A stretch of 64,000 bases of DNA from an uncultured bacterium (GCA_963825135.1 CAWGRW010000010.1:160026-224025), one strand, 5' to 3'. Shown: positions 4,053 through 62,259, numbered from the stretch's first letter. The notes: generated from the sequence alone by a model not told the origin. Numbers and translations: made by a program.

Positions 4053-4139
4053 AACGGTTCTGAACGTGTGCAAGAACCGGACACCGATCACTGATTCCAA
4101 ATAAATCCATTAGTCCTTGTATCTCATCAGCACAAACCA
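4053..4139 (+). mobile_element. AAC-hairpin-GGWC element in a GTCATTTCGA..GAGAAATCT host
   Basis: AAC GGTTCT gaacgtgtgca AGAACC GGAC...CCA. Confidence 0.7.
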
Positions 4140-4209
4140 AAACGTGAGAAATCTTTTTTTTTCTTCTTTTTTAATCTGTCATTGCGAGCAACGCGAAGCA
4201 ATCTCGCCT

Positions 4210-4932
4210 TCATCCTTTAATTCCCTCCTTAGAAAAAGGAGGGCTAGGGAGGATTTTCTTATCTATTTTTAAATCCCCCTCATCATCCCCCCCCTTGTCC
4301 AGCACCGCCCAGAACCCGCCGTCCTTTAGCCCGGCCACCACGTCCGGATGAGTCTCCTTCATCCTGAGCGTCTCTATCAGCTCCACAGGGTTGAGCCCGT
4401 CCGCCGCGACGTACCCCGAAAACGTCTGCCCCCTCTTTTTGAGCTCCTTCTCGAACCTGAGAAGGTTCAGGTACCCGTACTTCCTCAAAGCCTCTTCCAC
4501 GGGCCTGCTCTTCGCCCCCTCCACGTAAATCACCATCTTCGTCGATGCCGGGCTCACCCCGTGCGAAGCCGCGAAATTCTCTATGCTCCCCCACTCCCCG
4601 ATTATCTGCTGCGTCGTTATGTGCTCTATCCGTCCCATCAGTTGAATTCTCTCCTCTCCGTCGTTAGCAACTCCGACCGATTCCTTGCTCGCTCGGAATC
4701 GTTGCTCTATCCGTCCCATCAATCCCATTCTCTCCTCTGTTTCATTAGCAATGGCGTCCGGTTCGTTTTGTTTTCTGCCGCCGCTGAGCCAGACATTTGC
4801 ATTGATGTACCCAGCGTGGGGCGTCCGGCTGTTCGCCCGCTCACAACCGTTGCTCGCTCGCAACCGTTGCTCTATCCGTCCCATCAGACTCCATTGACTC
4901 CTTATTAATTCCGTCATCATAATTTCCGTCAT
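4210..4932 (-). CDS. Cro/Ner-like DNA-binding protein, divergent from CI; start uncertain
   Basis: Two tandem HTH-like units (QIIGEWGSIENFAASHGVS / ELKKRGQTFSGYVAADGLN); N-terminal LMGRIE repeats. Confidence 0.5.
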   Translation of the reverse strand: MTEIMMTELIRSQWSLMGRIEQRLRASNGCERANSRTPHAGYINANVWLSGGRKQNEPDAIANETEERMGLMGRIEQRFRASKESVGVANDGEERIQLMGRIEHITTQQIIGEWGSIENFAASHGVSPASTKMVIYVEGAKSRPVEEALRKYGYLNLLRFEKELKKRGQTFSGYVAADGLNPVELIETLRMKETHPDVVAGLKDGGFWAVLDKGGDDEGDLKIDKKILPSPPFSKEGIKG

Positions 4933-5165
4933 CTTTCCTAAATTGTAGGAGCGGCATCTTGCCGCTTCTTTTAATTCCCTCCTTTCGTAAAGGAGGGTCA
5001 GGGTCTATTTCCCTTTCCTTCTTTTAACCATCATCCTGAGCCTGTCGAAGGATGTCATCTCTCCCTTTCACTCCCATTCCCCGCCTCATCTCCCCTCATC
5101 TTCATTCCCGCCCTTTTATCATCCATTTCAACCGTTCTCCCAATTTCGCGACCATTCCACTTGCA

Positions 5166-5269
5166 ATTCACAGTATTGTGTATTAATATTGCTATTGTCA
5201 TATTGTCTATGTATATTATATTCACAGAACTGTGAATCTGTCAATAGGAAAATTCACAGAATTGTGAAA
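5166..5269. promoter_or_regulatory. Three palindromic operators ATTCACAG-NN-(C/T)TGTG(A/T)A at 5166-5183, 5220-5237 and 5252-5269
   Basis: Directly visible 18-bp palindromes between the divergent HTH genes. Confidence 0.75.
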
Positions 5270-5281
5270 TAGGGGGTAAAA

Positions 5282-5926
5282 GTGGATCACAATAACGAAA
5301 TCGGGCAGAGGCTCAAACTCGTAAGAGAGGCGCTCGACTTGACGCAGGAGGAATTCGGCAAGGGCATAGGCAAATCCCTCAACACCATCCTCAGCTGGGA
5401 GTCCGGCCGCACGCGCCCGCCCGACCATTTCCTGAAGGTCATAGAGAAGATATACGGCATAAGCCCGAAGTGGCTACGCCGCGGCCAGGGGGATATGTTC
5501 CTCCCTGATATATCGTCTGTCTTCGGCGGGGACAGCCTCGTCGAGATCAAGATATGGGAGCTGGCCGGCGCGGGGAACCCGCTCGCGTCTCCCGACGCCG
5601 AGCCTATAGAGCGCGTCACGCTGCCGTCGAAGCTGGTGCGGAACTACACGAACGGGTTCAGGGTCGAGGGGGACAGCATGTACCCCACCATCGTCAACGG
5701 CGCTTACGTGGGCTTTGACCCGAACGACAAGAAGATCGTGAGTAACGGGATATACTGCCTCCATCTGCCGTACGAGGGCTACGTCGTCAAGCGCGTCGAG
5801 ATCAAGCCCAACGAGATCATCATCAAGAGCGATAACCAGATGGTCGACGACTACTCCGTCCCTCTCGACGAGCTCGACCGGAACCTCATCGTCGGCCGCG
5901 TGAGATGGGTGTTCCAGAATGTGTAA
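5282..5926 (+). CDS. Phage CI-like repressor (HTH_3 + S24 autopeptidase)
   Basis: LTQEEFGKGIGKSLNTILSWESG HTH; AG cleavage site; VEGDSMYP Ser motif; VVKR Lys. Confidence 0.9.
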   Translation: MDHNNEIGQRLKLVREALDLTQEEFGKGIGKSLNTILSWESGRTRPPDHFLKVIEKIYGISPKWLRRGQGDMFLPDISSVFGGDSLVEIKIWELAGAGNPLASPDAEPIERVTLPSKLVRNYTNGFRVEGDSMYPTIVNGAYVGFDPNDKKIVSNGIYCLHLPYEGYVVKRVEIKPNEIIIKSDNQMVDDYSVPLDELDRNLIVGRVRWVFQNV

Positions 5927-6026
5927 TGGGGGGGGAAAATCCTAAAATTACCGCAAGATAATGAGCATAATAGCAAATTTCCCCCTTTAAATGCTTCTGT
6001 AATTTTGTTAGAATATATATAAGAAC

Positions 6027-6776
6027 ATGAGTGAGCTAAGCAAGATTGAATGGACAGATGCAACGTGGAATCCTGTAAGGGGCTGCAATAAAATAAGCCC
6101 CGGATGTAAATTCTGCTATGCAGAGGTTTTTGCGGAAAGATTTCGCGGCGTTCCCGGACATCCATACGAACAAGGTTTCGACCTAAGATTAGTTCCTGAA
6201 AGATTGGAAGAACCTCTAAAGTGGAAAAAACCGAGAATGATATTTGTAAACTCGATGAGTGACCTCTTTCATGAAAGAGTACCGAAGCAATATGTAAAAG
6301 AAGTATTCAAAGTTATGACAAAAGCTCATTGGCATACATTTCAAGTTCTCACAAAGAGATCTGAGCGCCTGTTGGAAATAAGTTTTGAGCTTGAGTGGCC
6401 TAGCAATGTATGGATGGGAGTAAGCATTGAATCCAGTAAATACACGTATAGATCAGATGATTTATCTAAAGTTCCAGCGGCAGTTCGTTTTCTAAGTGTT
6501 GAGCCTCTGTTAGAGATGATTCCCAACCTCCCCCTTAACAATATTAATTGGGTTATAGTTGGCGGTGAATCCGGACGTAATGCAAGACATATGAGTTTAG
6601 AATGGGCACAATCGATAAAGAATCAATGTGAAAAAGCGGGCGTAGCTTTCTTTCTAAAACAATTAGGAGGAAGAATAAACAAAAGAGGAGGCGACTTGGC
6701 ACTCCTCGACGGTAGAACGTGGCGTGAATATCCAACCAGCAATCTTGATTCACGCAAGTTAGCTGTAGGAATTTAA
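6027..6776 (+). CDS. DUF5131 / phage Gp37Gp68 family protein
   Basis: SKIEWTDATWNPVRGCNKISPGCKFCYAE three-Cys motif, FVNSMSDLFH, WVIVGGESG. Confidence 0.92.
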   Translation: MSELSKIEWTDATWNPVRGCNKISPGCKFCYAEVFAERFRGVPGHPYEQGFDLRLVPERLEEPLKWKKPRMIFVNSMSDLFHERVPKQYVKEVFKVMTKAHWHTFQVLTKRSERLLEISFELEWPSNVWMGVSIESSKYTYRSDDLSKVPAAVRFLSVEPLLEMIPNLPLNNINWVIVGGESGRNARHMSLEWAQSIKNQCEKAGVAFFLKQLGGRINKRGGDLALLDGRTWREYPTSNLDSRKLAVGI

Positions 6777-6802
6777 CTTTCTCTATTTATTCACAATAGA
6801 CA

Positions 6803-7910: not shown

Positions 7911-7923
7911 GGGGATATTATGG

Positions 7924-10153: not shown

Positions 10154-10744
10154 GTTAAGGGTGGGGGTGTACCTTATTATTTCTATATTATTTCTGTCAT
10201 TCCCGACACCGATCGGGAATCTAGTCTTTTAAATCCCCCTAAATCCCCCTTTACAAAGGGGGAAAACAATATTTCCAGATTTTAATTCCCTCCTTTAGCA
10301 AAGGAGGGTTAGGGAGGATTTAGCTTTTTCTTATCCCCGCGACATTACAGAATTTGCGGCACACAATGTGTGCTCATACTACGATCCTTCCGTAACTCCT
10401 CTGCCATCGCCGGGTAATTAGCCAAACCCGTTCGTGCTGAGCCAGTCGAAGCACGTTACCCGACATTACAGAATTTGCGTATAGAAAATCGATTGTACGA
10501 GCGTTAAGAATCTTACGTGGGATGGGGTGGGATCGGAAGATTTAGCGAGTACATGAGATTTTTAGCAAATTATGTAGTCGGATGATTTTTGCTTCTTTTC
10601 ATCAAGGAAAAGAAGGATAAATAAAACAGCCTTTCACCTTTCCTTTGTCTTTTCGAATGTTCACACTACGTGTGTGCTTCTTTTCATCAAGGAAAAGAAG
10701 AGAATAATATATTGCCTTCGTTTTATTTTAAATCCCCCTGAATC

Positions 10745-10829
10745 TGGCTTAACAAAAATGTCGCTTCGATTAAGGAAATCCTTTGCCTTTAATCATCTCC
10801 GACCAATTCCTCACTTGCTCGGAATTGTT
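10745..10829 (-). mobile_element. AAC-hairpin-GGWC element (85 nt) in an inverted host
   Basis: Clean insertion relative to the empty host at 10231-10262. Confidence 0.8.
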
Positions 10830-24774: not shown

Positions 24775-25650
24775 GCACACACACACGTAGTGTGTTTCTA
24801 TGATCCTTCCCGACCCCCTCAGCTCAAACCGGCAATCATGGCGTTTTCGTATGTCGGCGGCGACACGCCGCCCCGTTCACCCCGAGCGCACACGTAGCGC
24901 GCTGTCGAAGGGTCTTCCTTAATTCCCTCCCCCTTGAGGGGAGAGGGTGAAGGGTGAGGGTGTACCTAGATATGTAAACCCGTTCACCCTGAGCCCGTCG
25001 AAGGGTCATCCTTAATTCCCTCCCCCTGGGGGGGAGGGTTAGGGTGGAGGTGTATTTCGAGCAGCGCGAGAAATTATTTTTGCTTTTTTCACCGAGAAAA
25101 GAATTGGTTAAAAAAACGCTGTTTCACGTAACGATACCTTCGAACAGACCAATGTGAAAGGTTTTAGCATAAACACAAGATTCTTAGGATACGGAGTCGG
25201 AGTTTTCGCCCCTTTTCATCAAGGAGGAGGATAAAAAAAGATCCGTGCACCGCTCTTCGACTTTGATTGTCATTGCGATAAATCACATTGCGCTTGGTCG
25301 CCCTGGAAGCCGCTACTACGTTAACGTCAGCATTGCAAGCTGCATAGCAGCGCGGCAATCTCGCCTTTTCTTTCCCGACATTACAGAATTTGCGTCACAT
25401 TGTTTCCCTCCCCCTTCCCAAGGGGGAGGGTGTGGGTGGGGGTTTACCTTATCAGCCTATCAATCCAGAGAGTCTTTCTCTTTCCAGGCGTAAAGAAATC
25501 TTTGAGCAGTCCAATTGAAAGATTTTAGCTTAAACACAAGATTTTTAGCACAATTCTGTAGAGTCTTTTCGGAAACCACACTACGTGTGTGATTTTTGCT
25601 TCTTTTCATCAAGGAAAAGAAGGATAAATAAATGGTTTTTCACCTTTCCT
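24775..25650 (+). repeat. Composite repeat cluster 6 (degenerate copy 25092-25200; split copy 25375-25561)
   Basis: Shared modules. Confidence 0.88.
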
Positions 25651-31889: not shown

Positions 31890-32410
31890 CGCACACACAA
31901 TGTGTGTCTCTACGATTCTAGTGGAACTCCTTAGCCCGACCAATAATTTCCCTCCCCCGCAAGGGGGAGGATTAAGGGTGGGGGTGTACCTCAATATTTT
32001 TGTCATTGCAATGGTTCTGATGAATAAGAAGAACCGGTCGCTGCTGGCTGATTGCATTCAAGTTGCTATGCCATGGGACGAACCTGCCAAATAAAATCTG
32101 TGAGCGAAGCGAAGCAATCTCGTCTTTTTCTTCCCCGACATTACAGAATTTGCGTAAAGAAAATCGATTGTACGAGCGTTAAGAATCTTCCACGGGGTGG
32201 GGTTGAATTGGAAGATTTAGCGAGTACATGAGATTTTTAGCACAATTCTGTAGAGTCTTTTCGGAAACCACACTACGTGTGTGATTTTTGCTTCTTTTCA
32301 TCAAGGAAAAGAAGGAATTAAATTAGCCTTTGTCTTGTCCTTCCTTAGTCGTGTCTTTTCGAAAGAGCACACTACGTGTGTTCATCAAGGAAAAGAAGGA
32401 TAATATATTC
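31890..32410 (+). repeat. Composite repeat cluster 9 (hairpin 32135-32253)
   Basis: Shared modules. Confidence 0.9.
32010..32101 (+). mobile_element. AAT-hairpin-GGWC element (92 nt)
   Basis: Splits GTCATTGC|GAGCGAAGCGAAGCAATCT; empty host at 28381-28407. Confidence 0.78.
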
Positions 32411-34189: not shown

Positions 34190-34750
34190 CGCGCACGCAC
34201 ACGCACGTAGTGCGTTTCTACGATTCTAGTGGACCTCCTTAGCCCGACCAATAATTTCCCTTCCCCCGCAAGGGGGAGGATTAAGGGTGGGGGTGTTACC
34301 TTAGTGTTCTTATCAATTCAGAAATTCTTTTTCTTCCCGACATTACAGAATTTGCGTTAAGAAAATCGATTGTGCGAGCGTTAAGAATCTTACGGGAACG
34401 AATGCAAGCGAGCGCGCATTCGGACACCCTCTCCTATCCGCACGACGTTAGTTAGCCACGGACATCGCTAAGCTATTGCTCCGATTGGGGCTGAATTGGA
34501 AGATTTAGCGAGCACATGAGATTTTTAGCAAATTATGTAGTCGGATGATTTTTGCTTCTTTTCATCAAGGAAAAGAAGGATAAATAAAACAGCCTTTCAC
34601 CTTTCTTTGTCTTTTCCGTGTCTTTTCGGAAACCACACTACGTGTGTGATTTTTGCTTCTTCTCATCTAGGAAAAGAAGGATAAATAAAACCAGCATTTC
34701 TCCATTCCTTTGTCTTTTCTTTGCTTTTCCCCGACATTACAGAATCTGCG
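34190..34750 (+). repeat. Composite repeat cluster 10 (hairpin 34337-34544 with loop insertion)
   Basis: Shared modules. Confidence 0.9.
34397..34485 (+). mobile_element. AAC-hairpin-GGWC element in the loop of the long hairpin
   Basis: AAC GAATGC aagcgagcgc GCATTC GGAC. Confidence 0.75.
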
Positions 34751-34843: not shown

Positions 34844-36278
34844 TCATAACCCGAGCGCAGCGCACGTCGTGCCGGGACGGAACGTAGAATACAGCCATAC
34901 GGTCCGCGCGGTGGGGTTATCGTTTGAAACGCTGCGTACATCGATCGATGCATTCGCAGCCAGATCGACGCATAACGCACTGGAACAGGTTGTCCCGGAC
35001 GGCCCGCTCACCGTGCAGGTGACAGTACTTGCTATGCCGCCCGCCATCACCGTGAACGTATAACTGTTGGGTGCGGCGCCTATAGTATTGTCTAATATGA
35101 TATTTAGACCCACAAGTGCGCCCGAAACGGGCAAGCTATGCTGAACTGCAGATTCAGTGGCACTGGAGTTCTCCAAAAACATATCTATGAATGTAGAAGT
35201 GGCCGCTGATCCGGTCAGGATATTAATACGAGACCCGCCTGACAATATAGTCACGCCGGCAGGTGCGGGATCACCCTTAGGCCCCTGAGGCCCTGTTGCT
35301 CCAGTAGCCCCTGTAGAACCGGTAGCACCGGTCGTTCCCGTTGGGCCGGCGGCCGGCTGGCCCCGCAGGTCCCGTAGCCCCGGTTGCTCCTGTGGGTCCG
35401 GCAGGCCCGGCAGGCCCCGTTGATCCCGCAGGTCCGATAGGCCCGATTGCCCCTGTAGTCCCCGTGGGACCGGCTGGTCCGATAGGCCCGGCTGACCCTG
35501 TAGGTCCCGCAGGTCCGGTAGGCCCGATTGCCCCCTCGGGCCCGTTGCATACGTAAGTCGTGCCGGAAACGATATTGTCCTGCCCGGATTCGACCTTTAC
35601 GCCGCCGTCGGCGCAGTTAGGCCCCGGAGGCTCGGGCGTCGTGTTGACGAACGCGTTGAGCCCGTCCGTCCCCGCAGGCCCTGTGGGCCCCGTAGCCCCG
35701 GTCGCGCCTGTTGGCCCGATTGGACCGATGGGTCCTACTGCTCCGGTTGGTCCGGTTGGACCCGTTGCTCCTGTCGCCCCGGTTGTCCCTATCGGGCCGA
35801 TTGGTCCCTGAGGCCCCTCGGGCCCGTTGCATACGTAAGTAGTGCTGGAAACTATATTGTCCTGCCCGGATTCGACCTTTACGCCGCCGTCAGCGCAGTT
35901 AGGCCCCGGAGGCTCGGGCGTCGTGTTGACGAACGCGTCGAGCCCGTCCGTCCCCGCAGGCCCTGTGGGCCCCGTAGCCCCGGTCGCTCCGGTAGATCCG
36001 ATGGGGCCTGTAGGTCCGATCGGTCCGACCGCTCCCTCAGGACCGATTGGGCCCTGGGGTCCTTCCGGTCCCATAGGTCCGGGCGGTCCCTGTTCCCCGG
36101 CATTTACCTGGAGAGGAACCTCCTTTTCGAGACATTCCGTACCGGGGCCTCTGAAAGTCACTATTTGAAGAAAATCGTCGAGTACGCAAAAGGTTAATTC
36201 TTCCGAATTACTTGTACTTGCAAACAACAAAAAGCATAAAGCTAAAGATATCCCGATATCCCTTCTCATCATCTCCAT
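34844..36278 (-). CDS. Collagen-like (Gly-X-Y) secreted protein with C-terminal globular domain; frameshift(s) at ~35280-35350
   Basis: Signal peptide, long GXY runs, duplicated [21 protein letters not shown] module; C-domain in 34844-35254. Confidence 0.85.
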
Positions 36279-37259: not shown

Positions 37260-37685
37260 CTCACACACATTGTGTGTTTTTACGATCCTGTCGAAACTCC
37301 TCTGCCATCGCCAGGCAATTAGCGCAACCCGTTCACCCCGAGCCCGTCGAAGGGTTCTTCCTTAATTCCCTCCCCCTTGAGGGGGGAGGGTACGGGTGGG
37401 GGTGTTACCTTAGTGTTCTTATCAATTCAGAAATTCTTTTTCTTCCCGACATTACAGAATTTGCGTGAAGAAAATCGATTGTACGAGCGTTAAGAATCTT
37501 ACGCGGGGTGGGGTGGAATCGGAAGATTTAGCGAGTACACGAGATTTTTAGCAAATTATGTAGTCGGATGATTTTTGCTTCTTTTCATCAAGGAAAAGAA
37601 GGATAAATAAATAGCCTTTCACCTTTCTTTTGTCTTTCCGAAAGACCACACTACGTGTGTGTCGCGGCTGGAAGCCGCTCCTACG
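37260..37685 (+). repeat. Composite repeat cluster 11 (hairpin 37446-37567)
   Basis: Shared modules. Confidence 0.9.
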
Positions 37686-48979: not shown

Positions 48980-49670
48980 ATTTCCCTCCCCCTCCCAGGG
49001 GGAGGGTGCACACAATGTGTGCTCATGTACGATCCTTCCGTAATTCCTCCGCTATCGCCGGGGAATTAGCCAAACCCGTTCGTGCTGAGCGCACGCGAAG
49101 TGTGCTGTCGAAGGGTCTCTTCCCTTCAATTTCCCCCTTAGAAAAAGGGGGATTAAGGGGGATTTAGTCTTTTCTTTTTCCCAGACATTACAGAATTTGC
49201 GGAGGGTGAGCACCCGCGGGCATACGATCTCTCCCTCCCCCTCCGCTCAACCTGGCGTGTCATTGCAACGATTGCGAGCTAGTAAGCAATCGGTCGCCCT
49301 CCGCAAAACGCAAGCAAGCTACTGTGCCATGGGAAGGACAGACTATATACAAATCTGCTTCGCAGAAGCCGCGGCAATCTCATGAATAAAGCGAGATCGC
49401 CACGACCACACTACGGTCTCGCGATGACAGAAAAAGGGGTGGGGTAGAATCGGAAGATTTAGCGAGTACATGAGATTTTTAGCAAATTCTGTAGAGTCTT
49501 TTCGGAAACCACACTACGTGTGTGATTTTTGCTTCTTTTCATCAAGGAAAAGAAGGATAAAAAAAACAGCCTTTCGCCTTTCTTTGTCTTTGCTCTGTCT
49601 TTTCGAAAGATCACACTACGTGTGTTCATCAAGGAAAAGAAGGATAAAAAAAACATCCTTTCACCTTTCT
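48980..49670 (+). repeat. Composite repeat cluster 13 (split hairpin 49181-49494)
   Basis: Left and right arms separated by other modules. Confidence 0.88.
49267..49357 (+). mobile_element. AAC-hairpin-GGWC element
   Basis: GTCATTGC|AAC GATTGC gagctagtaa GCAATC GGTC. Confidence 0.72.
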
Positions 49671-49813
49671 TTTGTCTCTCTTCTCGACCGCAAAAAAAGC
49701 CCCTTTCCTCCGCCCCTCTTCTCATTTACGCCCGGTTTGTAATATACTATATGGATGAATTATCCCTCCGCCGGCTGCGCGCCGGACGCGGGGGGAAGGT
49801 GCGGAGGGAGGAC

Positions 49814-50134
49814 ATGGACCGCATGGACACGAACTCGGCAAGGATGGGGGACCTCCTGCTGACGATAGACGATATCAGCGTGGTGATGAGCGGCAGGATA
49901 ATCTGCAAATTCCGCCTGAGCCACAGGCACGAGCCCGAGGGCACCCTGGCCGAGCTCTACGCCGAGCTCGGAGAGGACGGGGTACTCGAGGCCGTGTGCC
50001 GCACCCCGCTCACCCCGAGGCGCATGGAGATCGTCTCCCGCTTCCTCCACCTCTACGAATCCAACATCGTCAGGCACCTCAGGGACTCCGCGCGCGGCTT
50101 AACCCCCTACATGTTTAAACTCCCCATGACCTAG
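49814..50134 (+). CDS. Hypothetical protein
   Basis: GGAGG RBS; GC3-rich part of ORF 49529-50134. Confidence 0.65.
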   Translation: MDRMDTNSARMGDLLLTIDDISVVMSGRIICKFRLSHRHEPEGTLAELYAELGEDGVLEAVCRTPLTPRRMEIVSRFLHLYESNIVRHLRDSARGLTPYMFKLPMT

Positions 50135-50139
50135 TCGTT

Positions 50140-50860
50140 CACGCGCGCAGCACACAATGTGTGTCTCTACGATTCTTCCGTAACTCCTCCGCTCAACCAA
50201 CAAGCGAAGCCAAACCCATTCGCGCTGAGCGCACACGAAGTGTGCTGTCGAAGGGCACATCCCAATCCTGTCATTTCGAGCAGCGCGAGAAATCCATCTT
50301 TTGCCTTTGCTTTTGTTTTTCCCCGACATTACAGAATTTGCGGCGGGTAAGCACCCGCGGGCATACGATCTCAAGCATCCACATAAGCTCGACCCAACTC
50401 GGTCGCCCTGTACTCTTAATTCCTTCCCCCTGGAGGGGGAACTGCTTCGAGCAAGCGAGAAGTAGGACGCCCTGACCCTTTAGCCACTTGGGTAACTGTG
50501 ACCATGCTCTCCGATTTGTCGAGCATGTGGTGAGGATGGGGGTGTCACCTTTCACTCATTCAATAATCCGGTAAGTTTTTCTCTTCCCCGACATTACAGA
50601 ATTTGCGTATAGAAAATCGATTGTACGAGCGTTAAAAATCTTCCACGGGGTGGGGTTGAATTGGAAGATTTAGCGAGTACATGAGATTTTTAGCAAATTA
50701 TGTAGTCGGATGATTTTTGCTTCTTTGTATCCAGACAAAGAAGGAAATAATATTGTCTTAGCCTTTGCCTTTTCTTTGCCTTTTCTTTTTCGAATGATCA
50801 CGCTACGTATGTTCATCAAGGAAAAGAAGGATGAAAAAAACATCCTTTCACCTTTCTTTG
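50140..50860 (+). repeat. Composite repeat cluster 14 (hairpin 50588-50709)
   Basis: Shared modules. Confidence 0.9.
50440..50528 (+). mobile_element. AAC-hairpin-GGWC element
   Basis: AAC TGCTTC gagcaagcga GAAGTA GGAC. Confidence 0.72.
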
Positions 50861-50877
50861 TCTTTCTTCCCGACCGC

Positions 50878-50917
50878 AAAAAAAGCCCCTTCCCTCCGCA
50901 ACGGAAGAAAGGGGCTC
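50878..50917 (-). terminator. Terminator for the 50978 gene; related hairpins at ~20783, ~22109, ~55414
   Basis: A7-GCCCCTT...AAGGGGGC. Confidence 0.65.
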
Positions 50918-50977
50918 ACAATTTCTCAGTCATCCTGAACTCGATTCAGGATCTCATCATTTTCTTATGTTCACCTT

Positions 50978-52072
50978 CTATGCCGCCTGCGCCCTCTTGC
51001 GCTTTATCGCGAAGAGCACTCCGATCATCGCTAATCCCGCAGCAGCCGCAATCATCCCCCACTCGGAGAGCGTCGGGATGTCTACGTTGGCTAAATCTCC
51101 GCACGGCCCGATAAACCTGCCGATCGAAGAAGTAAAATCTTCCCGAAACCGGATTTGGGTGACGATCGTACCGGTCAGCAGGTCCACGACCGACACGCCG
51201 CCCGGGATGCCGTTTACAACGTACAGGGTGCGGCCGTCCGCGGTCACATCGACGTTGCCGGGTCTCGAATCAGGCGAGGTCAGGATAGTGTCGACGACGG
51301 TGTTATCCGAGGTCCTGATTACTGCGACGCTGCCCAGATCCCCTTGCGTGACATACATGAACTGCCCGTCCGGTGAAGACACGATGCCCTGGGGCTGGCC
51401 CGGAACCGGGATAGTGAAAAGAAACGTATCGTTGGCTATTCTGATGACGGCTACGTTGTCGGATCCCCTTTCCGTAACATACAGGAACTCCCCGTCGGGC
51501 GTAAGCGCGCCGGAGAATACATCGGAACCGGGCAGGGCTATGAAATCGACTACGGCGTTGTCGGACGTCCTTATCACATAAACGCCTTCCGCTGTGAGAT
51601 AAACGAACTCCCCGTCGGGCGAGACGGACAGTCCCCGGACCTGAGCCGGGCTGAAATCTATCGTATCGACGACGGTGTTGTCCGAAGTCCTGATCACGGA
51701 GACGGAATTTCCCTGGAAATTGGCGACGTAAAGAAATCTCCCGTCGGGCGTAACAACCTCGCCGTCGGGGCTGTCTCCCACGCCAATCGTCCCCAGTACG
51801 GAACCGTCCGATGTCCGGATTACGGAAACCGAGGCGCTGTCGCCGTTAGTGACGTAAAGTATGCTCCCGTCCGGACTGAACGCCGTCCCGCCCGGGATAG
51901 ACTCCACGTTTATATCCCTTACGATCCTGTTAATGTCCGTAGGTATGACGCTCACTACGCCGTCCCCGGAATTGGGGCCCGTCGAATAATTCGGGACGAA
52001 CGCGCATACCTGGGCCGAGGCGTACCCGGCTGAAACGGCTAACAAAAGAAGCGCAATAGACAACACTCTCAT
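50978..52072 (-). CDS. YVTN beta-propeller IPTL-CTERM protein
   Basis: Repeated (S/T)PDGxxLYVxN..VSVIRTSD; IPTLSEWG tail. Confidence 0.9.
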   Translation of the reverse strand: MRVLSIALLLLAVSAGYASAQVCAFVPNYSTGPNSGDGVVSVIPTDINRIVRDINVESIPGGTAFSPDGSILYVTNGDSASVSVIRTSDGSVLGTIGVGDSPDGEVVTPDGRFLYVANFQGNSVSVIRTSDNTVVDTIDFSPAQVRGLSVSPDGEFVYLTAEGVYVIRTSDNAVVDFIALPGSDVFSGALTPDGEFLYVTERGSDNVAVIRIANDTFLFTIPVPGQPQGIVSSPDGQFMYVTQGDLGSVAVIRTSDNTVVDTILTSPDSRPGNVDVTADGRTLYVVNGIPGGVSVVDLLTGTIVTQIRFREDFTSSIGRFIGPCGDLANVDIPTLSEWGMIAAAAGLAMIGVLFAIKRKRAQAA

Positions 52073-52578
52073 ACATCCTCCTCCACGCACGGGCATACAT
52101 ATATTTAAGCTGTCCTCTAGATATACTATATTGATTTTATTGTTAATTAAAGTCAATAGTTGGGGACAATTAATATATTCAGGAAGATGGCGGGACTATC
52201 TCCGGGGGACAAAAAAAACCCTCCCCCCTCCTTAACTACAGATAACGAGGGGCGAGGGTTGAGAAGGGGATATTCACATATAAGTATACATATTATCAAA
52301 AAGTAACCAAGCAGAAATTTTCAGGGCGCGTAAAAAAAACAGCGGCACCCCCGCCGCGGCGGGCTCGTTTCCCCTTCTCGAAAACTCTGCCTCGGCCGGC
52401 GGCGGGGGGATGCCGTAAACTGCATCTCCCCAATGTAACGCCTCATTTATATCTACGTAACCCGCCCGCTTTCCGGATTAAAAGCCCCGGCTCCCCCCGA
52501 GAAAAATCCCCCTCCCCTCCCGTGCGGCGTCAGGTAAACTATTGCCCTTTAGCTTTCGGCAAACAGGAGGAAACAGAT

Positions 52579-53268
52579 TTGAAAACGCATCTCGTCATAA
52601 TATCCGCGCTGGTCTTCGCGCTCGCCGCCGCCGCTCGCTCGGACGAAGTAAAGCCCGCTCCGGCGCCCGCCCCATCGGCCGTGACCGGGACCGCGCCCGC
52701 GCTTTCCGTGAGCCCGGCGCCCAAGGGGTCTCAGGCGCCTCAGTCAAAACCGGTAGAGAATTACGAATTCATGGGCACGAAATGGGGCATGTCCAAGGCC
52801 CAGGTGAAGGCCATCGAGCACAAAAAGCCCAAAAAGGAGACCGACAACTCCCTCACATTCTCGGGCAGATATAAAAAGAGGCTCGTGTACATCACTTACC
52901 AGTTCAAGGACGACAAGCTCTTCCGCGCGGGGACCATACATGTCGAAAAGCTGGATAACGACGCAATGTACCTGCAGACTTACGAAGACGTTAAAAAAGA
53001 AGTGACGGACGCCTACGGCCCGCCGGTGATCGACGGGGAAAAGCAGCTCAACCCGAAAGCCGTCATCAACCCGGACAAGAAAGCGGAAGCGGTATGCAGG
53101 GGCGACCTGACGTACGGAGCCCAATGGAACATACCCGGATCGGTGGTGTTCCTGTCTATCCGCGGAGAAAACAAGAAGTGCCTCATCACGCTCATATACA
53201 CGAGCGAAGAGGCCTTTAAATCACTCACCGGCCAGACCGAACCCGCAAACCCCGGCAGAATCAAATGA
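52579..53268 (+). CDS. Secreted protein, FxxTxWGMS family
   Basis: AGGAGG RBS with TTG start; EFMGTKWGMSKAQVK. Confidence 0.8.
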   Translation: MKTHLVIISALVFALAAAARSDEVKPAPAPAPSAVTGTAPALSVSPAPKGSQAPQSKPVENYEFMGTKWGMSKAQVKAIEHKKPKKETDNSLTFSGRYKKRLVYITYQFKDDKLFRAGTIHVEKLDNDAMYLQTYEDVKKEVTDAYGPPVIDGEKQLNPKAVINPDKKAEAVCRGDLTYGAQWNIPGSVVFLSIRGENKKCLITLIYTSEEAFKSLTGQTEPANPGRIK

Positions 53269-53269
53269 C

Positions 53270-53660
53270 GCGCCCACACACATAGTGTGTTCCACGATCC
53301 TAGTGCGGCTCCTCCACTTCTATCAACTAATGTAGGAGCGGCTTCCAGCCGCGATTCCTTTTATTCCCTCCTTTGTAAAGGAGGGTGAGGGAGGATTTTG
53401 CCTTTTTCCTTTCCCCGACATTACAGAATTTGCGTTAAGAAAATCGATTGTACGAGCGTTAAAAATCTTCCACGGGGTGGGGTTGAATTGGAAGATTTAG
53501 CGAGTACATGAGATTTTTAGCAAATTATGTAAAGTCGGATGATTTTTGCTTCTTTTCATCAAGGAAAAGAAGGATAAAAAAAACAGCCTTTGTCTTGTCC
53601 TTCCTTAGTCTTTTCTTTTCGAAAGACCACACTACGTGTGTTCATCAAGGAAAAGAAGTA
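53270..53660 (+). repeat. Composite repeat cluster 15 (hairpin 53415-53538)
   Basis: Shared modules. Confidence 0.9.
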
Positions 53661-53792
53661 AATTATATATTCGCTTTTCTCTATCCTTGTCTTTCCATGT
53701 CCGCCGGTACGGTAGATATCCTCAAATCAATCTACTCCGCACCCGGAGAGCGCGCCCCGGCGGAATACCCGGTGAAATGGTACAATTAATTT

Positions 53793-54476
53793 ATGTGCGG
53801 AAGATTCGCGCGTAACGAGGATATCAAGGAACTCGAGATCCGCTTCGGCATCTACCGCGCGTCGGGACTGCCGGCCGCGCCGGAATACAACATCGCCCCA
53901 TCGCAGGACTGCCCCGTCGTCACCGTCGAGAGCGACAGGCGCGTGCTCGGCCTAATGCGCTGGGGGCTCGTCCCCGCATGGGCCGAAGACCCGAAGTCGG
54001 GGTACAGGATGATAAACGCTCGCGCCGAGACCCTCGCCGAGAAGCAGAGCTTCAAGCCGCTGCTTAAGAAATCCCGCTGCCTCGTCCCGGCCTCGGGCTT
54101 CTTTGAGTGGAAGAAGCTCGCGGGCGGCGGCAAGACCCCCTATTTCATAAGGCTCATGGGCGGCGGCCCCTTCGCGTTCGCCGGGCTCTGGACCACATGG
54201 CACGCGGGCAAAGACGACGAGCTCCGCACGTTCACGATCATCACCACGACCGCGAACGAGCTCATGGCCCCCGTCCACGACAGGATGCCCGTCATTCTGC
54301 ATGAGAAGGACGAGGCGCGCTGGCTCGACCCGGAGCTTAACAAGCCCGAAGACCTGCTCCCGCTCCTCGTTCCGTATCCGTCCGGCGCGATGGAATGCTG
54401 GGAGGTCTCGCCCTACGTGAACTCCTACAAGAACAAGGGCGAGGAATGCGTAAAACCCGTTTCACCCCTTCCGTAA
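53793..54476 (+). CDS. yedK: SOS response-associated peptidase (SRAP/YedK/HMCES)
   Basis: MCGRF N-terminus, YNIAPSQ, INARAET, HDRMPVIL. Confidence 0.93.
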   Translation: MCGRFARNEDIKELEIRFGIYRASGLPAAPEYNIAPSQDCPVVTVESDRRVLGLMRWGLVPAWAEDPKSGYRMINARAETLAEKQSFKPLLKKSRCLVPASGFFEWKKLAGGGKTPYFIRLMGGGPFAFAGLWTTWHAGKDDELRTFTIITTTANELMAPVHDRMPVILHEKDEARWLDPELNKPEDLLPLLVPYPSGAMECWEVSPYVNSYKNKGEECVKPVSPLP

Positions 54477-54490
54477 TCGTCATTGCGAGG

Positions 54491-54577
54491 AACGGTTCTG
54501 AGCAAGCACAAGAACCGGTCGCGTCCGTTCACATTGCTGCGATGTTCATTATCCCAGGGAAAGAGCATTGGATAATA
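54491..54577 (+). mobile_element. AAC-hairpin-GGWC element between SRAP and DUF559
   Basis: AAC GGTTCT gagcaagcaca AGAACC GGTC. Confidence 0.72.
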
Positions 54578-54607
54578 GCGACCGCGGCAATCTCGTTTTT
54601 GTATTTA

Positions 54608-54644
54608 ATTCCCTCCTTTCGTAAAGGAGGGTAAGGGTGGATTT
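54608..54644 (+). repeat. Palindrome TTCCCTCCTTTCGTAAAGGAGGGTAAGGGTGGATT, left flank of DUF559
   Basis: Same family at ~4220, 4973, 10283, 19163, 53363, 63843. Confidence 0.8.
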
Positions 54645-54673
54645 TCCCTTATAGATTAAGTTATATTTCAATT

Positions 54674-55057
54674 GTGCTTCATTATAACAGCCATCTGAAA
54701 CATCTTGCACGTGAGCTTAGAAAAAACATGACGGATGCCGAAAAGCTCCTCTGGTCCAGGCTCAGAATGAAGCAGCTTTCTGGTTGCCAGTTTTACAGAC
54801 AAAAAATCATAGGAGACTATATCGCGGACTTCTACTGTCATAAGGCAAAACTAGTCATAGAAATAGATGGAGGAGAACATTATTCAGAAAGAAAGGCGCT
54901 CACTGATAAAGGTAGAGACAGGCATTTTGAATCTCTCGGATTAAAAGTATTGAGATTCTCAAATCTCGAAGTATTGAAAAATACGGATAGTGTTCTGGAA
55001 CAAATAATTTTGTATTCAAATCCCCCTGAATCCCCCTTTACGAAAGGGGGAAAATGA
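54674..55057 (+). CDS. DUF559 / Vsr-like endonuclease
   Basis: ARELRKNMTDAEKLLWSRLR, FYRQ, YIADFYC, IEIDGGEH, GLKVLRFSN; AT-rich. Confidence 0.93.
   Translation: MLHYNSHLKHLARELRKNMTDAEKLLWSRLRMKQLSGCQFYRQKIIGDYIADFYCHKAKLVIEIDGGEHYSERKALTDKGRDRHFESLGLKVLRFSNLEVLKNTDSVLEQIILYSNPPESPFTKGGK
55019..55053 (-). repeat. Inverted copy of the flank palindrome (AATCCCCCTGAATCCCCCTTTACGAAAGGGGGAA) overlapping the DUF559 3' end
   Basis: Reverse complement aligns to 54608-54644. Confidence 0.8.
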
Positions 55058-57096: not shown

Positions 57097-57198
57097 CGCT
57101 CTCGGGACCTCCGGTTTTAGTTTGAGACCGCTTCTCTTAAACGGGGAATATTATAATGGACTTTCAGGCCTAATCCATACCGCGCCGGGAATAACCGC

Positions 57199-59869: not shown

Positions 59870-60625
59870 TCAGACGGCGTTTGACCTTCTTCTTTTAACC
59901 GCGAAGAACACACCCACGAGCATCAATCCCCCGGCAGCCGCGGCCATACCCCACTCCGAGAGGGCGGGGATATTGTCGAACCGGCTCGTTTCGATAACCC
60001 GGAACGCGCCTATTACGCCCGTCTCGGTGTTTGAATAAGGCGGGAGTCCGTCAGCGTCCTGGTAATATCTCTCGACAAAAAAGCCGCTCGTATCCGGTTG
60101 GTTCGCATTTACCAAAACCTGGTCGCAGTCGCTATCGAGCGCGTACGACGCGGACGGGTTTGAGAAACGGATAATCAGCCCGCCTCCGGGGAAGTCGAAC
60201 GGGGCCTCCACGGTAAACTGCATCTCGAAGTCGCCGACTATGTCATCGCCGTTCGGATTGAGCGGGGTATGCGTATTCGAAACTACCTTCACGAACGGCT
60301 GCGCGGGTAGATCGCCTCCGTTGACGGTCGTCGCCGCAAGCTCGATATCGAGCTCTACCGCCGTGTTGTTGAGCTGTCCGAGGTCAAACGCGAGAGTATC
60401 GCCCGGAACCAGATTGAACGCGGGTATGTCCTTATAAATAAAGCCCAAAAACGGGCCCCAGGCGGACCCCAAAACCCCGCCGTTCCCGAAAGGATAGCAG
60501 TTGGAGACTACGGGATTATCGGGGAAGATCGTAATTTCCTGCGCGGAGACAAATTTCGGACTGGCGAGAAGCGTGGAAATAGTAAGAACAGCGAATATAA
60601 TGCTTTTCATATCACGATCCTCCAT
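59870..60625 (-). CDS. IPTL-CTERM protein
   Basis: Signal peptide; IPALSEWG-TM-KRRR. Confidence 0.88.
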   Translation of the reverse strand: MEDRDMKSIIFAVLTISTLLASPKFVSAQEITIFPDNPVVSNCYPFGNGGVLGSAWGPFLGFIYKDIPAFNLVPGDTLAFDLGQLNNTAVELDIELAATTVNGGDLPAQPFVKVVSNTHTPLNPNGDDIVGDFEMQFTVEAPFDFPGGGLIIRFSNPSASYALDSDCDQVLVNANQPDTSGFFVERYYQDADGLPPYSNTETGVIGAFRVIETSRFDNIPALSEWGMAAAAGGLMLVGVFFAVKRRRSNAV

Positions 60626-60788
60626 AATATAAAATTATATAATATATTTCCCCGTCATTGTCGTACAATTCGGGATAAAAGTCAATCATAACCCCCCTCG
60701 AACAAACCCGGTATTCACAGCGCCCGCGATGTAGTATTATAGGAACGGAGGGTAATTGCCGCGGCACGCCCCGGCGGAGGTGAGAGAG

Positions 60789-61790
60789 ATGAAGAAAAAA
60801 GCGCTATTATGCTTCCTTTCCCTGTTCATGGCGCGCGCGGCCCTCGCAGCGCCCTTCGCCTACATAACAAACGAAATGGACGATACCGTATCGGTCATCG
60901 ACACCGCGTCCAACACGGTCGTCGCGCTGGTCGCGACAGGGGACGAGCCTAGGGGCGTCGGGGTGAGCGCGGACGGGAGATTCGTCTACGTCACGAACTT
61001 CCTCGGCAACACCGTCTCCGTCATCGACACGTCGCTCAACCGGGTCACGGCGACGATCCCGGTCGGAGAGCAGCCCCAGTGCGTCGCGGTAAGCCCGGAC
61101 GGAAAGCGCGTTTACGTCACCAATTTCAAGAGCGCCACGCTCGCGGTCATAGACGCCCTGGAGCACAAGGTCGTAGCGTCGGTCCCCGTCGGCAGCAGGC
61201 CCGACGGCGTGGCGGTCGCGCCCGACGGCAGGTTCGTTTACACGGCCAACTTCGACGGCGACAGCGTCACGGTCGTCGACGCCGCGAGTAACAAGGTCAC
61301 GGCCACGGTCCCGAGCGCGCACAGACCCTCGGGCATAACGGTGAGCCCGGACGGGGAATTCGTTTACGTGACGAATATCGCGAGCGGCGACGTTTCGGTG
61401 ATCAGGGCGTCCCTGGGCGAGGTCGTCCGGACGGTGCAGGCGGGGATGCTCCCCGCGGGCGTGGTCGTAAGCCCGGACGGCAGGTTCGTTTACGTGGCCA
61501 ATTCGGGGAGCAGCGACGTGACCGTCATCGACGCGGCCGCCTATAAGGTAACGGCGACCATACCGGCGGGCCCGCTGGCGTCGGGCGCGGACATGACCCC
61601 CGACGGGAAATACCTCTACGTCGCCAACTCCGGGGACGAAACGGTCACGGTCATAGACACCGCGAAGAACAAGGTCTCGGCCACTGTAAAGGTCGGGAAG
61701 AGCCCGCTCGCCTTCGGAAAATTCATTACGCAGGGAAGCCCTCCTCCGGCAAGCCCACAGGCTCCCGAACAAACACCGGCGGCTCAATAA
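60789..61790 (+). CDS. Secreted YVTN family beta-propeller protein
   Basis: Seven repeats such as SPDGRFVYVTN..VSVID. Confidence 0.92.
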   Translation: MKKKALLCFLSLFMARAALAAPFAYITNEMDDTVSVIDTASNTVVALVATGDEPRGVGVSADGRFVYVTNFLGNTVSVIDTSLNRVTATIPVGEQPQCVAVSPDGKRVYVTNFKSATLAVIDALEHKVVASVPVGSRPDGVAVAPDGRFVYTANFDGDSVTVVDAASNKVTATVPSAHRPSGITVSPDGEFVYVTNIASGDVSVIRASLGEVVRTVQAGMLPAGVVVSPDGRFVYVANSGSSDVTVIDAAAYKVTATIPAGPLASGADMTPDGKYLYVANSGDETVTVIDTAKNKVSATVKVGKSPLAFGKFITQGSPPPASPQAPEQTPAAQ

Positions 61791-61802
61791 ACGATTGCGA
61801 GT

Positions 61803-61888
61803 AACGGTTCTGAGCAAGCGTAAGAACCGGTCGCTGTCGGCTGATTGCAATTCAGCAAGTTTTCTATCCACCAAGCCTGATGAATCCT
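61803..61888 (+). mobile_element. AAC-hairpin-GGWC element
   Basis: AAC GGTTCT gagcaagcgta AGAACC GGTC. Confidence 0.72.
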
Positions 61889-62170
61889 GCGACCGAAGCA
61901 GTCTTGGCTTTTTCTTCCCCCGACATTACAGAATTTGCGGCGGGAGAGCACCTGCGGTTATATGATCCTTCGAAGCTCTACGCTAAAGGAAACCTCGCCC
62001 AACCCGTTCACCCCGAGCGCACACGAAGTGCGCTGTCGAAGGGTCTCTTCCCTTCAATTCCCTCCTTAGAAAAAGGGGGATTAAGGGGGATTTAGTCTTT
62101 TCTTTTTCCCCGACATTACAGAATTTGCGTTAAGAAAATCGATTGTACGAGCGTTAAGAATCTTACGCGG

Positions 62171-62259
62171 GACGATTCCGAACTAGTAAGGAATCGGACG
62201 CCCTATCCTTATCAACAACTTCGGAATTATAATCACGCATCATTAACCTACATCACCAT
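62171..62259 (+). mobile_element. GAC-hairpin-GGWC element in the loop of the long hairpin
   Basis: GAC GATTCC gaactagtaa GGAATC GGAC...CCA. Confidence 0.72.

Follow-up and report, generated by a model that had tools for sequence, protein, structure and literature searches.

A family of ~92-nt hairpin-headed repeats nested in host palindromes in one lineage of uncultured bacteria

Insertion sequences of the IS110/IS1111 and IS1397 types are full elements with a transposase (a DEDD enzyme in IS110/IS1111) and insert into REP hairpins. The miniature elements derived from IS200/IS605 (palindrome-associated transposable elements) carry subterminal hairpins at both ends and are preceded, at their left end, by a fixed target of 4-5 nt. 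Integron attC sites, including those in clusters without an integrase, measure 57-141 nt and carry the paired R boxes RYYYAAC and GTTRRRY. A REPIN is a mobile unit of two inverted REPs with a cognate RAYT present in single copy, and in the neisserial mosaics 20-nt hairpins of the dRS3 type flank RS units. REP and REPIN sequences are short, high-copy, extragenic imperfect palindromes mobilised by RAYT (Y1 HUH) transposases (PMC3116915, PMC3337134). The neisserial intergenic mosaic elements occur with dRS3 hairpin repeats (PMC1797815).

We analysed a 64-kb window (the whole stretch of DNA, 64,000 nt) from the genome of an uncultured bacterium, in which an initial annotation had listed 13 copies of a cryptic element, each inside another palindromic repeat. 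All 13 were found where they had been placed and as described, the position given as 10745 being the low coordinate of the minus-strand copy at 10739-10829. A covariance model was built from these 13 copies, so that their own matching (E = 1e-8 to 1e-16) is by construction; it added three further copies in the window, one of them weak. The copies, with three empty host sites, are as follows (scores are from the covariance model).

4053..4145, plus strand: element copy inside a GTCATTTC..GAAATC hairpin, 68.0 bits
10063..10154, plus strand: element copy after a C-run hairpin (CCCTCCCCC..GGAGGGGG) and before GGGTGGGGG, 69.9 bits
10739..10829, minus strand: element copy in an inverted CCCCC hairpin host, 65.2 bits
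10888..10980, plus strand: element copy in a CCCTCC hairpin host, 67.7 bits
19044..19135, plus strand: element copy in a GTCATTTC hairpin host, 70.4 bits
29614..29704, plus strand: element copy in a CCCCC hairpin host, 63.8 bits
32010..32100, plus strand: element copy directly 3' of the 5' arm of a GTCATTGC..GCAATCTC hairpin, 57.6 bits
34397..34487, plus strand: element copy at the apex of a ~122-nt long hairpin module, 41.8 bits
49267..49357, plus strand: element copy in a GTCATTGC hairpin host, 65.7 bits
50440..50533, plus strand: element copy after a C-run hairpin, 46.2 bits
54491..54584, plus strand: element copy in a GTCATTGC hairpin host, 15 nt 3' of the stop of a SRAP gene, 49.6 bits
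61803..61895, plus strand: element copy in a degenerate GATTGC..GCAGTC hairpin, 64.7 bits
62171..62263, plus strand: element copy, GAC variant, at the apex of a long hairpin module, 46.8 bits
4763..4851, minus strand: additional copy, lying within the hairpin loop of another copy, 49.3 bits
4614..4703, minus strand: additional copy, a short tandem-array unit bounded by the 18-nt repeat TGATGGGACGGATAGAGC, 42.1 bits
3579..3668, plus strand: additional weak copy, possibly decayed, 30.1 bits, E 2e-5
49128..49165, plus strand: empty CCCCC-type host site for comparison (C-run, loop, G-run, ATTAAG, G-run; family D12)
25331..25362, plus strand: empty hairpin host CATTGC-AAGCTGCATAGCAGCGCG-GCAATC, where the strain-variant contig C13 has an 85-nt element
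37445..37567, plus strand: long hairpin module CCGACATTACAGAATTTGC .. GCAAATTATGTAGTCGG, empty and containing bulged bases

The leading triplet of the 13 copies is AAC, as first described, with the exceptions AAT (32010) and GAC (62171). Ten different 5' arms were counted, all 13 stems pair, and exactly four copies (10063, 10888, 29614 and 50440) need one G-T pair. The long hairpin module empty at 37445..37567 is of the type that hosts copies 34397 and 62171, and the 361-nt region that holds it (37300-37660) gives z = -5.5.

Across this genome, the model gave 144 matches at E <= 0.01, all full length except two cut by contig ends; a strict pattern found 140 sites, against 39 in the shuffled genome. 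The matches are non-coding and of near-fixed length (88-95 nt), and no longer version enclosing an ORF, for which the initial annotation had proposed to look, occurs among them. The description of the element as structure-conserved and sequence-divergent with a near-fixed length is well founded. It matches no Rfam family: in the window, there were 0 matches at the gathering score, and the three chance-level matches at E <= 1 all lie off the copies. The element is present in 23 of 41 related genomes, in 21 of the 24 genomes of its own family and in all 9 of its own genus, with 18 to >100 model matches in each congener. In other genera the element ends and the host kinds are the same as here, and in low-copy genomes the copies adjoin housekeeping genes. 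These ~92-base hairpin-headed repeats are confirmed as a real family of one uncultured-bacterial lineage.

Each copy begins with AAC and a hairpin whose stem is really 7 bp, the C of AAC pairing with the first G of GGWC. The presumed loop is itself structured, being closed by tandem G-A/A-G pairs and one or two more pairs; two such inner pairs covary. The hairpin is followed by GG(A/T)CGC, often then by GGYTGATTGCA, and by a loosely structured tail of 40-50 nt with the A-rich end AAAYCAAAATAR; no conserved fold was found in the tail, and the 5' hairpin is the sole conserved one. For the 7-bp stem and the two inner pairs, 96.6% of 468 cells are paired in 52 distinct rows from this genome, a fraction reached by 0 of 500 shuffles and compared with 20-38% in slid controls, and 106 cells are changed on both sides. 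In an alignment of 125 distinct rows (127 copies) taken from foreign genomes and metagenome entries, which was fitted to the model and whose loci were mostly found by a pattern fixing the loop and flanks, 98.0% of cells are paired, a fraction reached by 0 of 500 shuffles. This foreign alignment contains 104 double changes; the number of pairs changed on both sides is not above chance (6 vs. 5.0 in shuffles; 95 of 500 reach it). Covariation is strong in both sets, and the hairpin has been maintained through compensatory change. Moreover, read on the AAC strand, the 125 foreign copies show 93 G-U/U-G cells against 22 non-pairs, one pair position being U-G in 60 of the 125 rows. Because G-T pairs mark that strand, the AAC strand is the folding strand, as had been suggested.

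The claim that every copy interrupts a host palindrome is true within the window; genome-wide, it stands for roughly nine in ten copies. A pattern classifier placed 94 of 123 copies in hosts, and most of the other 29 lie in the same hosts by eye; by eye, at least 4 copies coincide with the stop codon of an IPTL-CTERM gene. In 104 of the 123 copies the flanks form a stem of 5 bp or more, compared with 58% and 55% in two controls. That the element sits in hairpin repeats and follows their orientation is also borne out. It occupies at least eight unrelated host types with the same 5' AAC end, while the preceding bases vary (GGGG, GAGG, AAAG, TTGC, GAAC, GAGC), and in five separate cases a copy is nested in the loop of another copy.

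Comparisons of paralogues, of strain variants and of species all revealed filled and empty sites. Of 125 copies, 84 have one or more paralogous empty sites, and clean 85-92-nt inserts occur in the CCCCC host (10 empty sites, against which copy 29614 is an 85-nt insert), at the long-hairpin apex (17-19 empty sites) and in the GTCATTGC host (copy 32010, 92 nt). Between strain variants, C13 is filled and C10 empty with both flanks matching, and two further strain-level cases involve 92-93 nt. One orthologous intergenic site is plain in two related genomes (G002 and G004), carries a host without the element in two others (G005 and G008) and has both in this genome (G000). The inserts (~85-93 nt) are polar and show no duplication; they are precisely placed within hairpin loops or next to them, and the loops used include that of the element itself and the antisense-strand tRNA T-arm. 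The absence of target duplication, initially noted for the cleanest cases, holds in these clean cases and not in tandem arrays, where each unit is delimited by 14-18 nt copied from the left flank. In addition, the target junctions are not uniform: 0-9 target bases are missing according to host type and the position within the loop varies, which is unlike a precise site-specific enzyme.

Searches of this genome, which is 94% complete, for a mobilising enzyme gave no match to Y1_Tnp/RAYT, IS110, RVT_1 (reverse transcriptase), TnpB or Resolvase (serine recombinase), with 0 matches to PF01797 (Y1_Tnp; controls positive in 6 of 14) and to PF01548 (IS110), and no multi-copy ORF family resembling a transposase. 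The only intact site-specific recombinases found are XerC, XerD, a third Xer-like protein and one phage-type integrase, and TIGR02249 (integron integrase) stayed below cut-off for all five tyrosine recombinases tested in this genome. Within the family, Y1_Tnp occurs in 4 of 24 genomes, IS110 in 5 and the integron integrase in none, vs. 21 for the element. None of the enzyme families tested across relatives tracks the element, nor does the third Xer-like protein. When the model was run on five IS110 loci, an element turned up near one of them, and elements flanked none.

We give about an even chance to the family being a lineage-specific, ~92-nt non-coding and non-autonomous insertion element, old and single-strand-active, carried as a passenger of host repeats. 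Entry into each host type would be a rare insertion dependent on single-stranded DNA and on structure, probably where an extruded hairpin offers a purine run (roughly RG^GA), and the mobilising enzyme would act in trans. Today, the element would multiply mostly as a passenger of its host repeats. Clusters of copies differing by at most 10 of 86 nt each lie within one host type, except for one head/tail chimera, and since no recent move of a subfamily between host types was found among them, the element may or may not still be mobile today. The missing enzyme, the uneven junctions and the lack of such moves weigh against this reading. Copies at the same host site do share tails, as initially noted; because close-copy clusters keep to one host type, joint copying of host and element is the better explanation. 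The suggestion that the tail encodes the target did not hold, the match to a copy's own flank being no better than that to other copies' flanks (tandem arrays set aside). One tail family has two different left hosts, and heads and tails reassort at the hairpin/GGWCGC junction, where recombination may provide a second route of spread.

A somewhat unlikely alternative is that the element is not transposable but a recombining module, an optional block in an intergenic hairpin patchwork like the neisserial mosaic elements, its presence or absence resulting from homologous exchange or gene conversion between paralogous modules and its hairpin persisting through self-correction, by templating, within the inverted repeat. 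Templated correction of quasi-palindromes can also produce compensatory change in DNA inverted repeats without selection. The confinement of close copies to one host type, the reassortment of heads and tails and the lack of a transposase in the genome all agree with such a module. Moreover, the region as a whole is built as a mosaic with a fixed module order, and the strain-level indels are flanked by repeat modules, with identity breaking down nearby in two of three cases; these strain-level differences could stem from gene conversion between modules. However, exchange alone cannot put one AAC-ended element into at least eight unrelated hosts and five times into its own loop, nor can it explain the copies beside housekeeping genes in low-copy genomes, and the one-strand excess of G-T pairs over other mismatches is not expected from double-strand exchange.

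The window belongs to a strictly co-oriented array of hairpin modules: on contig C10, host modules number 84 plus and 0 minus and element copies 38 plus and 6 minus, and in four other records the element copies (13, 7, 6 and 5) are co-oriented. Rows of element units stand behind four tRNA genes of this genome (Arg-CCT, Glu-TTC, Arg-ACG and Arg-TCT). Behind the first three, each unit ends in a copy of the tRNA 3' end; at Arg-TCT, two copies lie 3' of the gene, with tRNA-like sequence before one. These arrays share a 14-16-nt core, and their folding strand is antisense to the tRNA. More than 120 of the 144 copies are away from tRNA genes, and low-copy relatives have no copies near them. For an insertion element, the tRNA arrays could reflect repeated integration, or unequal exchange, of units carrying the target's left flank. 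Both kinds of array might instead have been built by a tyrosine recombinase recognising, by shape, an attC-like one-strand hairpin, but we hold such an integron-like cassette site to be improbable. The structure-conserved, sequence-variable and single-strand-biased sites, the strict co-orientation, the reassortment exactly at the hairpin, a tRNA layout as expected of repeated integration at a T-arm hairpin with a shared core, and the predominance of Xer proteins among the intact recombinases are in its favour; against it, there is no AAC..GTT paired R box, the integron integrase and the third Xer-like protein fail it as described above, the array edges carry no recombinase gene, and dispersed copies share no core with their targets.

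Finally, it is no less doubtful that the hairpin is selected in RNA (an idea put forward for E. coli REP sequences), either in a small RNA or in a signal that stabilises or processes mRNA 3' ends: one-strand wobble is as compatible with RNA as with single-stranded DNA, several copies in the window follow a same-strand gene at a distance of 13-320 nt and the tRNA-linked arrays could be co-transcribed with the tRNA, but genome-wide orientation to neighbouring genes is random (19/19/18/22; 17 of 95 copies examined overlap crude ORF calls), which does not support a sense-strand RNA role, the tRNA arrays fold on the antisense strand, there is no common upstream promoter context because the hosts differ, and neither an Rfam match nor a conserved tail fold was found.

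No known transposase accounts for the insertion element that we favour, and each described system shares part of its features. Like IS110/IS1111 and IS1397, it is aimed at palindromic-repeat loops in a fixed orientation; unlike them, it has no ORF, and IS110 transposases are absent from this genome and do not co-occur with it in relatives. As in IS200/IS605 miniatures, there are no terminal inverted repeats or target duplications, and the element is polar and strand-specific with a hairpin near its end; this hairpin is the only conserved one, 3 nt from the 5' end, and the variable bases before AAC, in place of a conserved 4-5-nt target, and the absence of TnpA/TnpB from the genome argue against membership. 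With attC sites it has in common shape over sequence, a single folding strand, a conserved AAC and a size within 57-141 nt, but AAC runs straight into the stem without a GTT partner, and no integron integrase reaches the cut-off in this genome. The host modules are perfectly co-oriented, as attC arrays are, but copies are nested in them rather than marking each cassette or following each gene. The neisserial elements resemble it in layout (intergenic patchwork, 50-150-nt units punctuated by short hairpins, variable gene regions), whereas its arms vary with compensation and its modules are strictly polar. Tandem units 3' of a tRNA gene, each ending in the tRNA 3' end, recall the E. coli tRNA-linked repeats (tyrT/rtT type) behind three tRNA genes, but this concerns a minority of copies, most not being next to a tRNA, and the folding strand is antisense. 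From REP/REPIN it differs in that RAYT is absent from this genome and present in just 4 of 24 family genomes, copies are single and co-oriented rather than inverted doublets (the sole close inverted pair, 10739 minus and 10888 plus, lies in separate hosts), a 60-nt non-palindromic tail is present, the arms vary widely with compensation, and the element is nested in other hairpins. It nevertheless resembles them as a short, imperfect palindrome, extragenic and present in many copies, whose flanking bases are conserved (its complement reads CGWCC, hairpin, GTT), and which is long-lived, vertically inherited in a lineage and presumed to act as folded single-stranded DNA.

The initial annotation had listed 13 copies of a non-coding repeat of about 92 nt (the element: a 5' AAC, a hairpin, GGWC and a divergent tail), and its observation of such a family is solid. 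All 13 copies are present at their places in the window. The leading triplet AAC is borne out, the exceptions being AAT at 32010 and GAC at 62171, and the 6-nt arms are fully paired in all 13 copies, with a loop of 10-11 nt followed by GG(A/T)C. There are indeed ten distinct 5' arms, and a single G-T pair is needed in exactly four stems (10063, 10888, 29614 and 50440). The copy given as 10745 on the minus strand spans 10829 down to 10739. We built a covariance model (R1) from an alignment (A1) of these 13 copies and 40 others of the source genome, G000. R1 matches 16 sites in the window, 13 of them by construction, and the additional copies are the following.

4763-4851, minus strand: additional copy (R1)
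4614-4703, minus strand: additional copy (R1)
3579-3668, plus strand: additional copy, weak (R1)

On the minus strand, 4614-4889 reads as a small tandem array with units bounded by an 18-nt direct repeat, in which one full copy is nested within the hairpin loop of another copy. A 240-aa ORF at 4210-4932 (minus strand), which has no Pfam match and is partly covered by these tandem and nested copies, is probably not a gene. In the whole 3.13-Mb genome, a strict pattern (triplet, 6 paired bases, 9-12-nt loop, GGWC) occurs at 140 sites vs. 39 after block shuffling. With a sequence profile covering nt 1-48, 147 sites were retrieved at E <= 1, and R1 gave 144 matches at E <= 0.01 from 150 candidates scored. 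Rfam returned nothing at gathering scores for the window and no match on any copy at E <= 1; moreover, none of the papers listed for tRNA-linked repeats and for Dadabacteria repeats describes the element.

The stem has 7 bp, as the first G of GGWC is the partner of the C of AAC. The loop is also structured (G-A, then R-Y-N-N-G-Y, then G-A): two tandem G-A/A-G pairs, together with one or two further pairs of Watson-Crick or wobble type, enclose a very small loop. In A1 (52 distinct rows, 468 cells), a standard pair is found in 96.6% of the cells and a double-sided change in 106 of them. The paired share, the number of double-change cells and the covariation score were each reached by none of 500 shuffles, and pairing was only 20-38% when the partner was slid by 1-3 columns. 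A second alignment (A2; 125 rows), made of 127 copies from other genomes, IMG/VR records and public MAGs, has 98.0% of its cells paired and 104 double changes, values again reached by 0 of 500 shuffles, but A2 was fitted to R1 and most of its loci came from a pattern fixing the loop and the flanks, so that only the arms are free evidence. The number of pairs with a change on both sides (6 vs. 5.0 in shuffles, reached by 95 out of 500) is not significant in A2. Wobble pairs occupy 26 cells in A1 and 93 in A2, where U-G is found at one pair in 60 of the 125 rows; other non-pairs amount to 16 and 22 cells, respectively. These wobbles would be A-C mismatches on the complement, and the AAC strand is therefore the folding strand. 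A second hairpin family, found window-wide (e.g. at 25269, 28381, 40293 and 54479), consists of GTCAT, variable arms, a GA-rich loop and ATC(TC); its arms also vary with compensation (ATTGC, ATTTC, ATCCTGAA, ATTCCTG, ATCGC). In other genomes, the hairpin part of R1 also matches short hairpins near copies.

Downstream of the hairpin, many copies have GGWCGC-N4-GGYTGATTGCA in common, and the remaining tail displays no conserved fold, whether copies are folded singly or as a consensus. In other genera, a clear AAAYCAAAATAR forms the 3' end near position 92. A head-to-tail circle of the element would carry the junction ...CAAAATAG followed directly by AAC.... The proposal that the tail might encode target specificity was not supported: the longest substring that a tail has in common with its own flanks does not exceed that obtained with the flanks of other copies, and six of the seven same-strand tail matches of at least 8 nt to the left flank are tandem arrays.

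Insertion sites were studied by comparing the left flank of each copy with other places of the genome having the same flank without the element (empty sites; exact seeds). At least one empty site was obtained for 84 of the 125 copies, counting self-matches of tandem arrays and a small number of doubtful rows. At ...AAAAAGGGG^GATTRAGGGGGATTT, the insert is 85-87 nt long and runs from AAC to ACCA with no duplication or loss (10 empty sites). It measures 86-88 nt at the apex of a long hairpin (...CTTACGCGG^GGTGGGG...; 17-19 empty sites) and 92 nt at GTCATTGC^GAGCG...GCAATCTC, while 2-9 target bases are missing in the remaining hosts, i.e. the other hairpin repeats that hold a copy. The bases at the insertion point are purine-rich, roughly RG^GA, and not fixed. 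The long hairpin (CCGAC-AT-TACA-G-AATTTGC ... GCAAATT-A-TGTA-GTCGG) is found in the window as follows.

37445-37567: imperfect long hairpin of about 122 nt, bulged bases on the plus strand
34336-34544: long hairpin with the element in its apex
62109-62319: long hairpin with the element in its apex

A pattern classifier distributed 123 copies among the host classes below.

Host classes of 123 element copies (pattern classifier)
GTCAT..ATC hairpins: 30 copies
C-run hairpins: 30 copies
Long-hairpin apex: 10 copies
Antisense 3' end of a tRNA: 10 copies
Own hairpin loop: 10 copies
GTCGAAG site: 4 copies
Unclassified: 29 copies, by eye mostly in the same hosts

In five separate cases, the hairpin loop of one copy holds a second copy, placed after loop base 4 or 8. 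A flank stem of at least 5 bp spans 104 of the 123 copies, vs. 58% of mismatched flank pairs and 55% of random sites. By eye, the site of at least four copies is the stop codon of an IPTL-CTERM gene. In several tandem IPTL-CTERM genes (e.g. C9 of the source genome, 662512-667075, minus strand), the last residues (…VRKRLQASA) and the stop are encoded by the element hairpin, and the element overlaps the 3' end of the coding sequence.

The AAC 5' end and a nearly constant 3' end are found in at least eight unrelated host types. The small contigs of the source genome (C1-C8 and C11-C17) are strain variants, 95-98% identical to parts of contigs C9 and C10; their genes are collinear, and the differences are mainly gains or losses of intergenic repeat modules. 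C13 has an 85-nt element where C10 (window 25331-25362) has an empty CATTGC-AAGCTGCATAGCAGCGCG-GCAATC, with flanks matching on both sides. Two further strain differences of 92-93 nt lie in C-run hosts, and their flanks diverge sooner. At one intergenic site compared across the genus, G002 and G004 have a plain stretch of 91 nt, G005 and G008 an empty C-run host, and G000 a host with the element. Copies differing by at most 10 of 86 nt form clusters that are each confined to one host type, with one exception: a chimera, in which two different heads (the 5' hairpin part) with their left flanks are joined to the same tail and right flank. Such head/tail reassortment occurs more widely. Today, copying along with the hosts thus seems to be the main mode of multiplication of the element, together with exchange at the junction between hairpin and GGWCGC; this would also account for the common tail of copies at the same site. 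The contigs of four public DNA runs over window 49000-55000 are fragmented at repeats; in one run, a joint skips 49267-49369, its shorter side being only 27 nt with undetermined letters between, and it is not assignable to this locus.

With a crude ORF caller, the orientation of the copies relative to their left/right neighbour genes was same/same in 19 cases, same/opposite in 19, opposite/same in 18 and opposite/opposite in 22, and a further 17 copies overlap ORF calls. This balance argues against a role of the sense strand in mRNAs. Action on single-stranded DNA would best fit the pairing of one strand, a polarity tied to the host and not to genes, and insertion into hairpin loops.

Units of the element also lie 3' of four tRNA genes (Arg-CCT, Glu-TTC, Arg-ACG and Arg-TCT). 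In the arrays of Arg-CCT, Glu-TTC and Arg-ACG, read in the tRNA direction, each unit ends with hairpin-GTT followed by a 9-16-nt copy of the tRNA 3' end; these units fold on the strand antisense to the tRNA. Such a layout is what units carrying the tRNA end would produce by integrating repeatedly at the T-arm hairpin, and unequal exchange could also have built these arrays. They were rejected as the ancestral home of the element, with a tRNA gene nearby in none of the 12 loci of low-copy relatives. Long-unexplained 'tRNA-linked repeats' are now tied to a dispersed element family.

R1 detected the element in 23 out of 41 related genomes, the source genome included: 21 of the 24 genomes of its own family, all nine of its own genus (18 to at least 105 copies each), and 1 of 16 genomes (one of seven families) elsewhere in the order. 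A pattern scan of public genomes pointed to MAGs labelled Dadabacteria, Thermodesulfobacteriota, 'uncultured Spirochaetia', delta proteobacterium and Thermoanaerobaculia. From 33 public loci, R1 recovered a full copy in 18, the other 15 being mostly lone pattern matches in unrelated taxa. In IMG/VR, four of the five records checked hold 13, 7, 6 and 5 copies, co-oriented within each record; these records would seem to be pieces of an array of this type and not phages.

Small hairpin repeats moving as folded single strands are known from a handful of enzyme families, namely RAYT/IS200 HUH transposases, IS110 recombinases and integron integrases. The source genome (94% complete) has no Y1_Tnp, IS110, RVT_1, TnpB or Resolvase match and no multi-copy ORF family resembling a transposase; Y2_Tnp gave no match there either, with a control that was also silent. 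Its eight Phage_integrase matches are XerD, XerC, a 285-aa Xer-like protein, a 365-aa integrase and fragments. No integron integrase is among them, nor in any of the 24 genomes of the family.

C9 of the source genome, 698153-699007: third Xer-like tyrosine recombinase besides XerC and XerD, 285 aa, single-copy

This Xer-like protein is found in 21 of the 24 family genomes, but it does not track the element, being present in four element-free genomes (G011, G022, G030 and G040) and not found in two element-bearing ones (G026 and G001). The 365-aa integrase does not track it either. Y1_Tnp and IS110 occur in only 4 and in 5 of the 24 family genomes, respectively, vs. 21 with the element. Candidates by proximity were also rejected: the DUF559 gene adjoining the copy at 54491 occurs only once, in G003 a Y1 gene lies 0.9 kb from a copy but has no flanking copies, and a glyoxalase-element-MgsA layout seen in G014 and G026 is not kept in G000, and the hosts differ. 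No recombinase was found at the array edges, and in low-copy genomes no neighbour gene is common to the element loci. A whole bacterial family holds hundreds of such elements, with clear structure on one strand, nesting in hairpin loops and arrays linked to tRNA genes, and none of these enzymes accompanies them across the family. These genomes are a defined place to seek a new hairpin-specific DNA enzyme or, alternatively, to demonstrate that recombination can suffice for repeats of this kind to persist and spread.

The window lies within a very large array of intergenic hairpin modules, strictly co-oriented regardless of gene direction.

C10 69501-224025 and C9 1-82261 of the source genome (window 1-64000 included): cassette-like array of more than 200 kb

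On C10, all 84 occurrences of the motif CGACATTACAGAAT are on the plus strand (29 vs. 0 on C9), and the modules keep the same order wherever they recur between gene blocks. Element copies are concentrated in the array region and near both ends of C9, with few in the origin-proximal half. At window 35277-36278 (minus strand), a collagen-triple-helix repeat protein with DUF7151 is encoded, and its 9-nt periodic DNA dominates the direct-repeat scan. The array holds no integron integrase. The layout of the long hairpin recalls integron attC, whose motif is AAC/GTT, although the long hairpin has GAC/GTC in its place. We consider it improbable that the element heads, the related GTCAT..ATC hairpins and the 122-nt long hairpin are sites of an undescribed recombination system acting on single-stranded DNA structures, an analogue of integrons without integron integrase, that assembled this terminus-proximal co-oriented gene-cassette array and the tRNA arrays via Xer-type recombinases or a family not yet recognised as recombinase.

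This very large polar array of hairpin modules, now exposed, shapes the accessory genome of an uncultured lineage, and its polarity is of interest together with the first entry of the element into hairpins and the protein behind this entry. The element belongs with the small, hairpin-bearing, non-autonomous bacterial repeats, as a new form of them. It works most like REP and IS200-type single-strand elements, but tests of membership placed it in none of REP-RAYT, IS200/IS605, IS110 and integron attC; its mosaic, recombining life-style is common to the neisserial intergenic elements.
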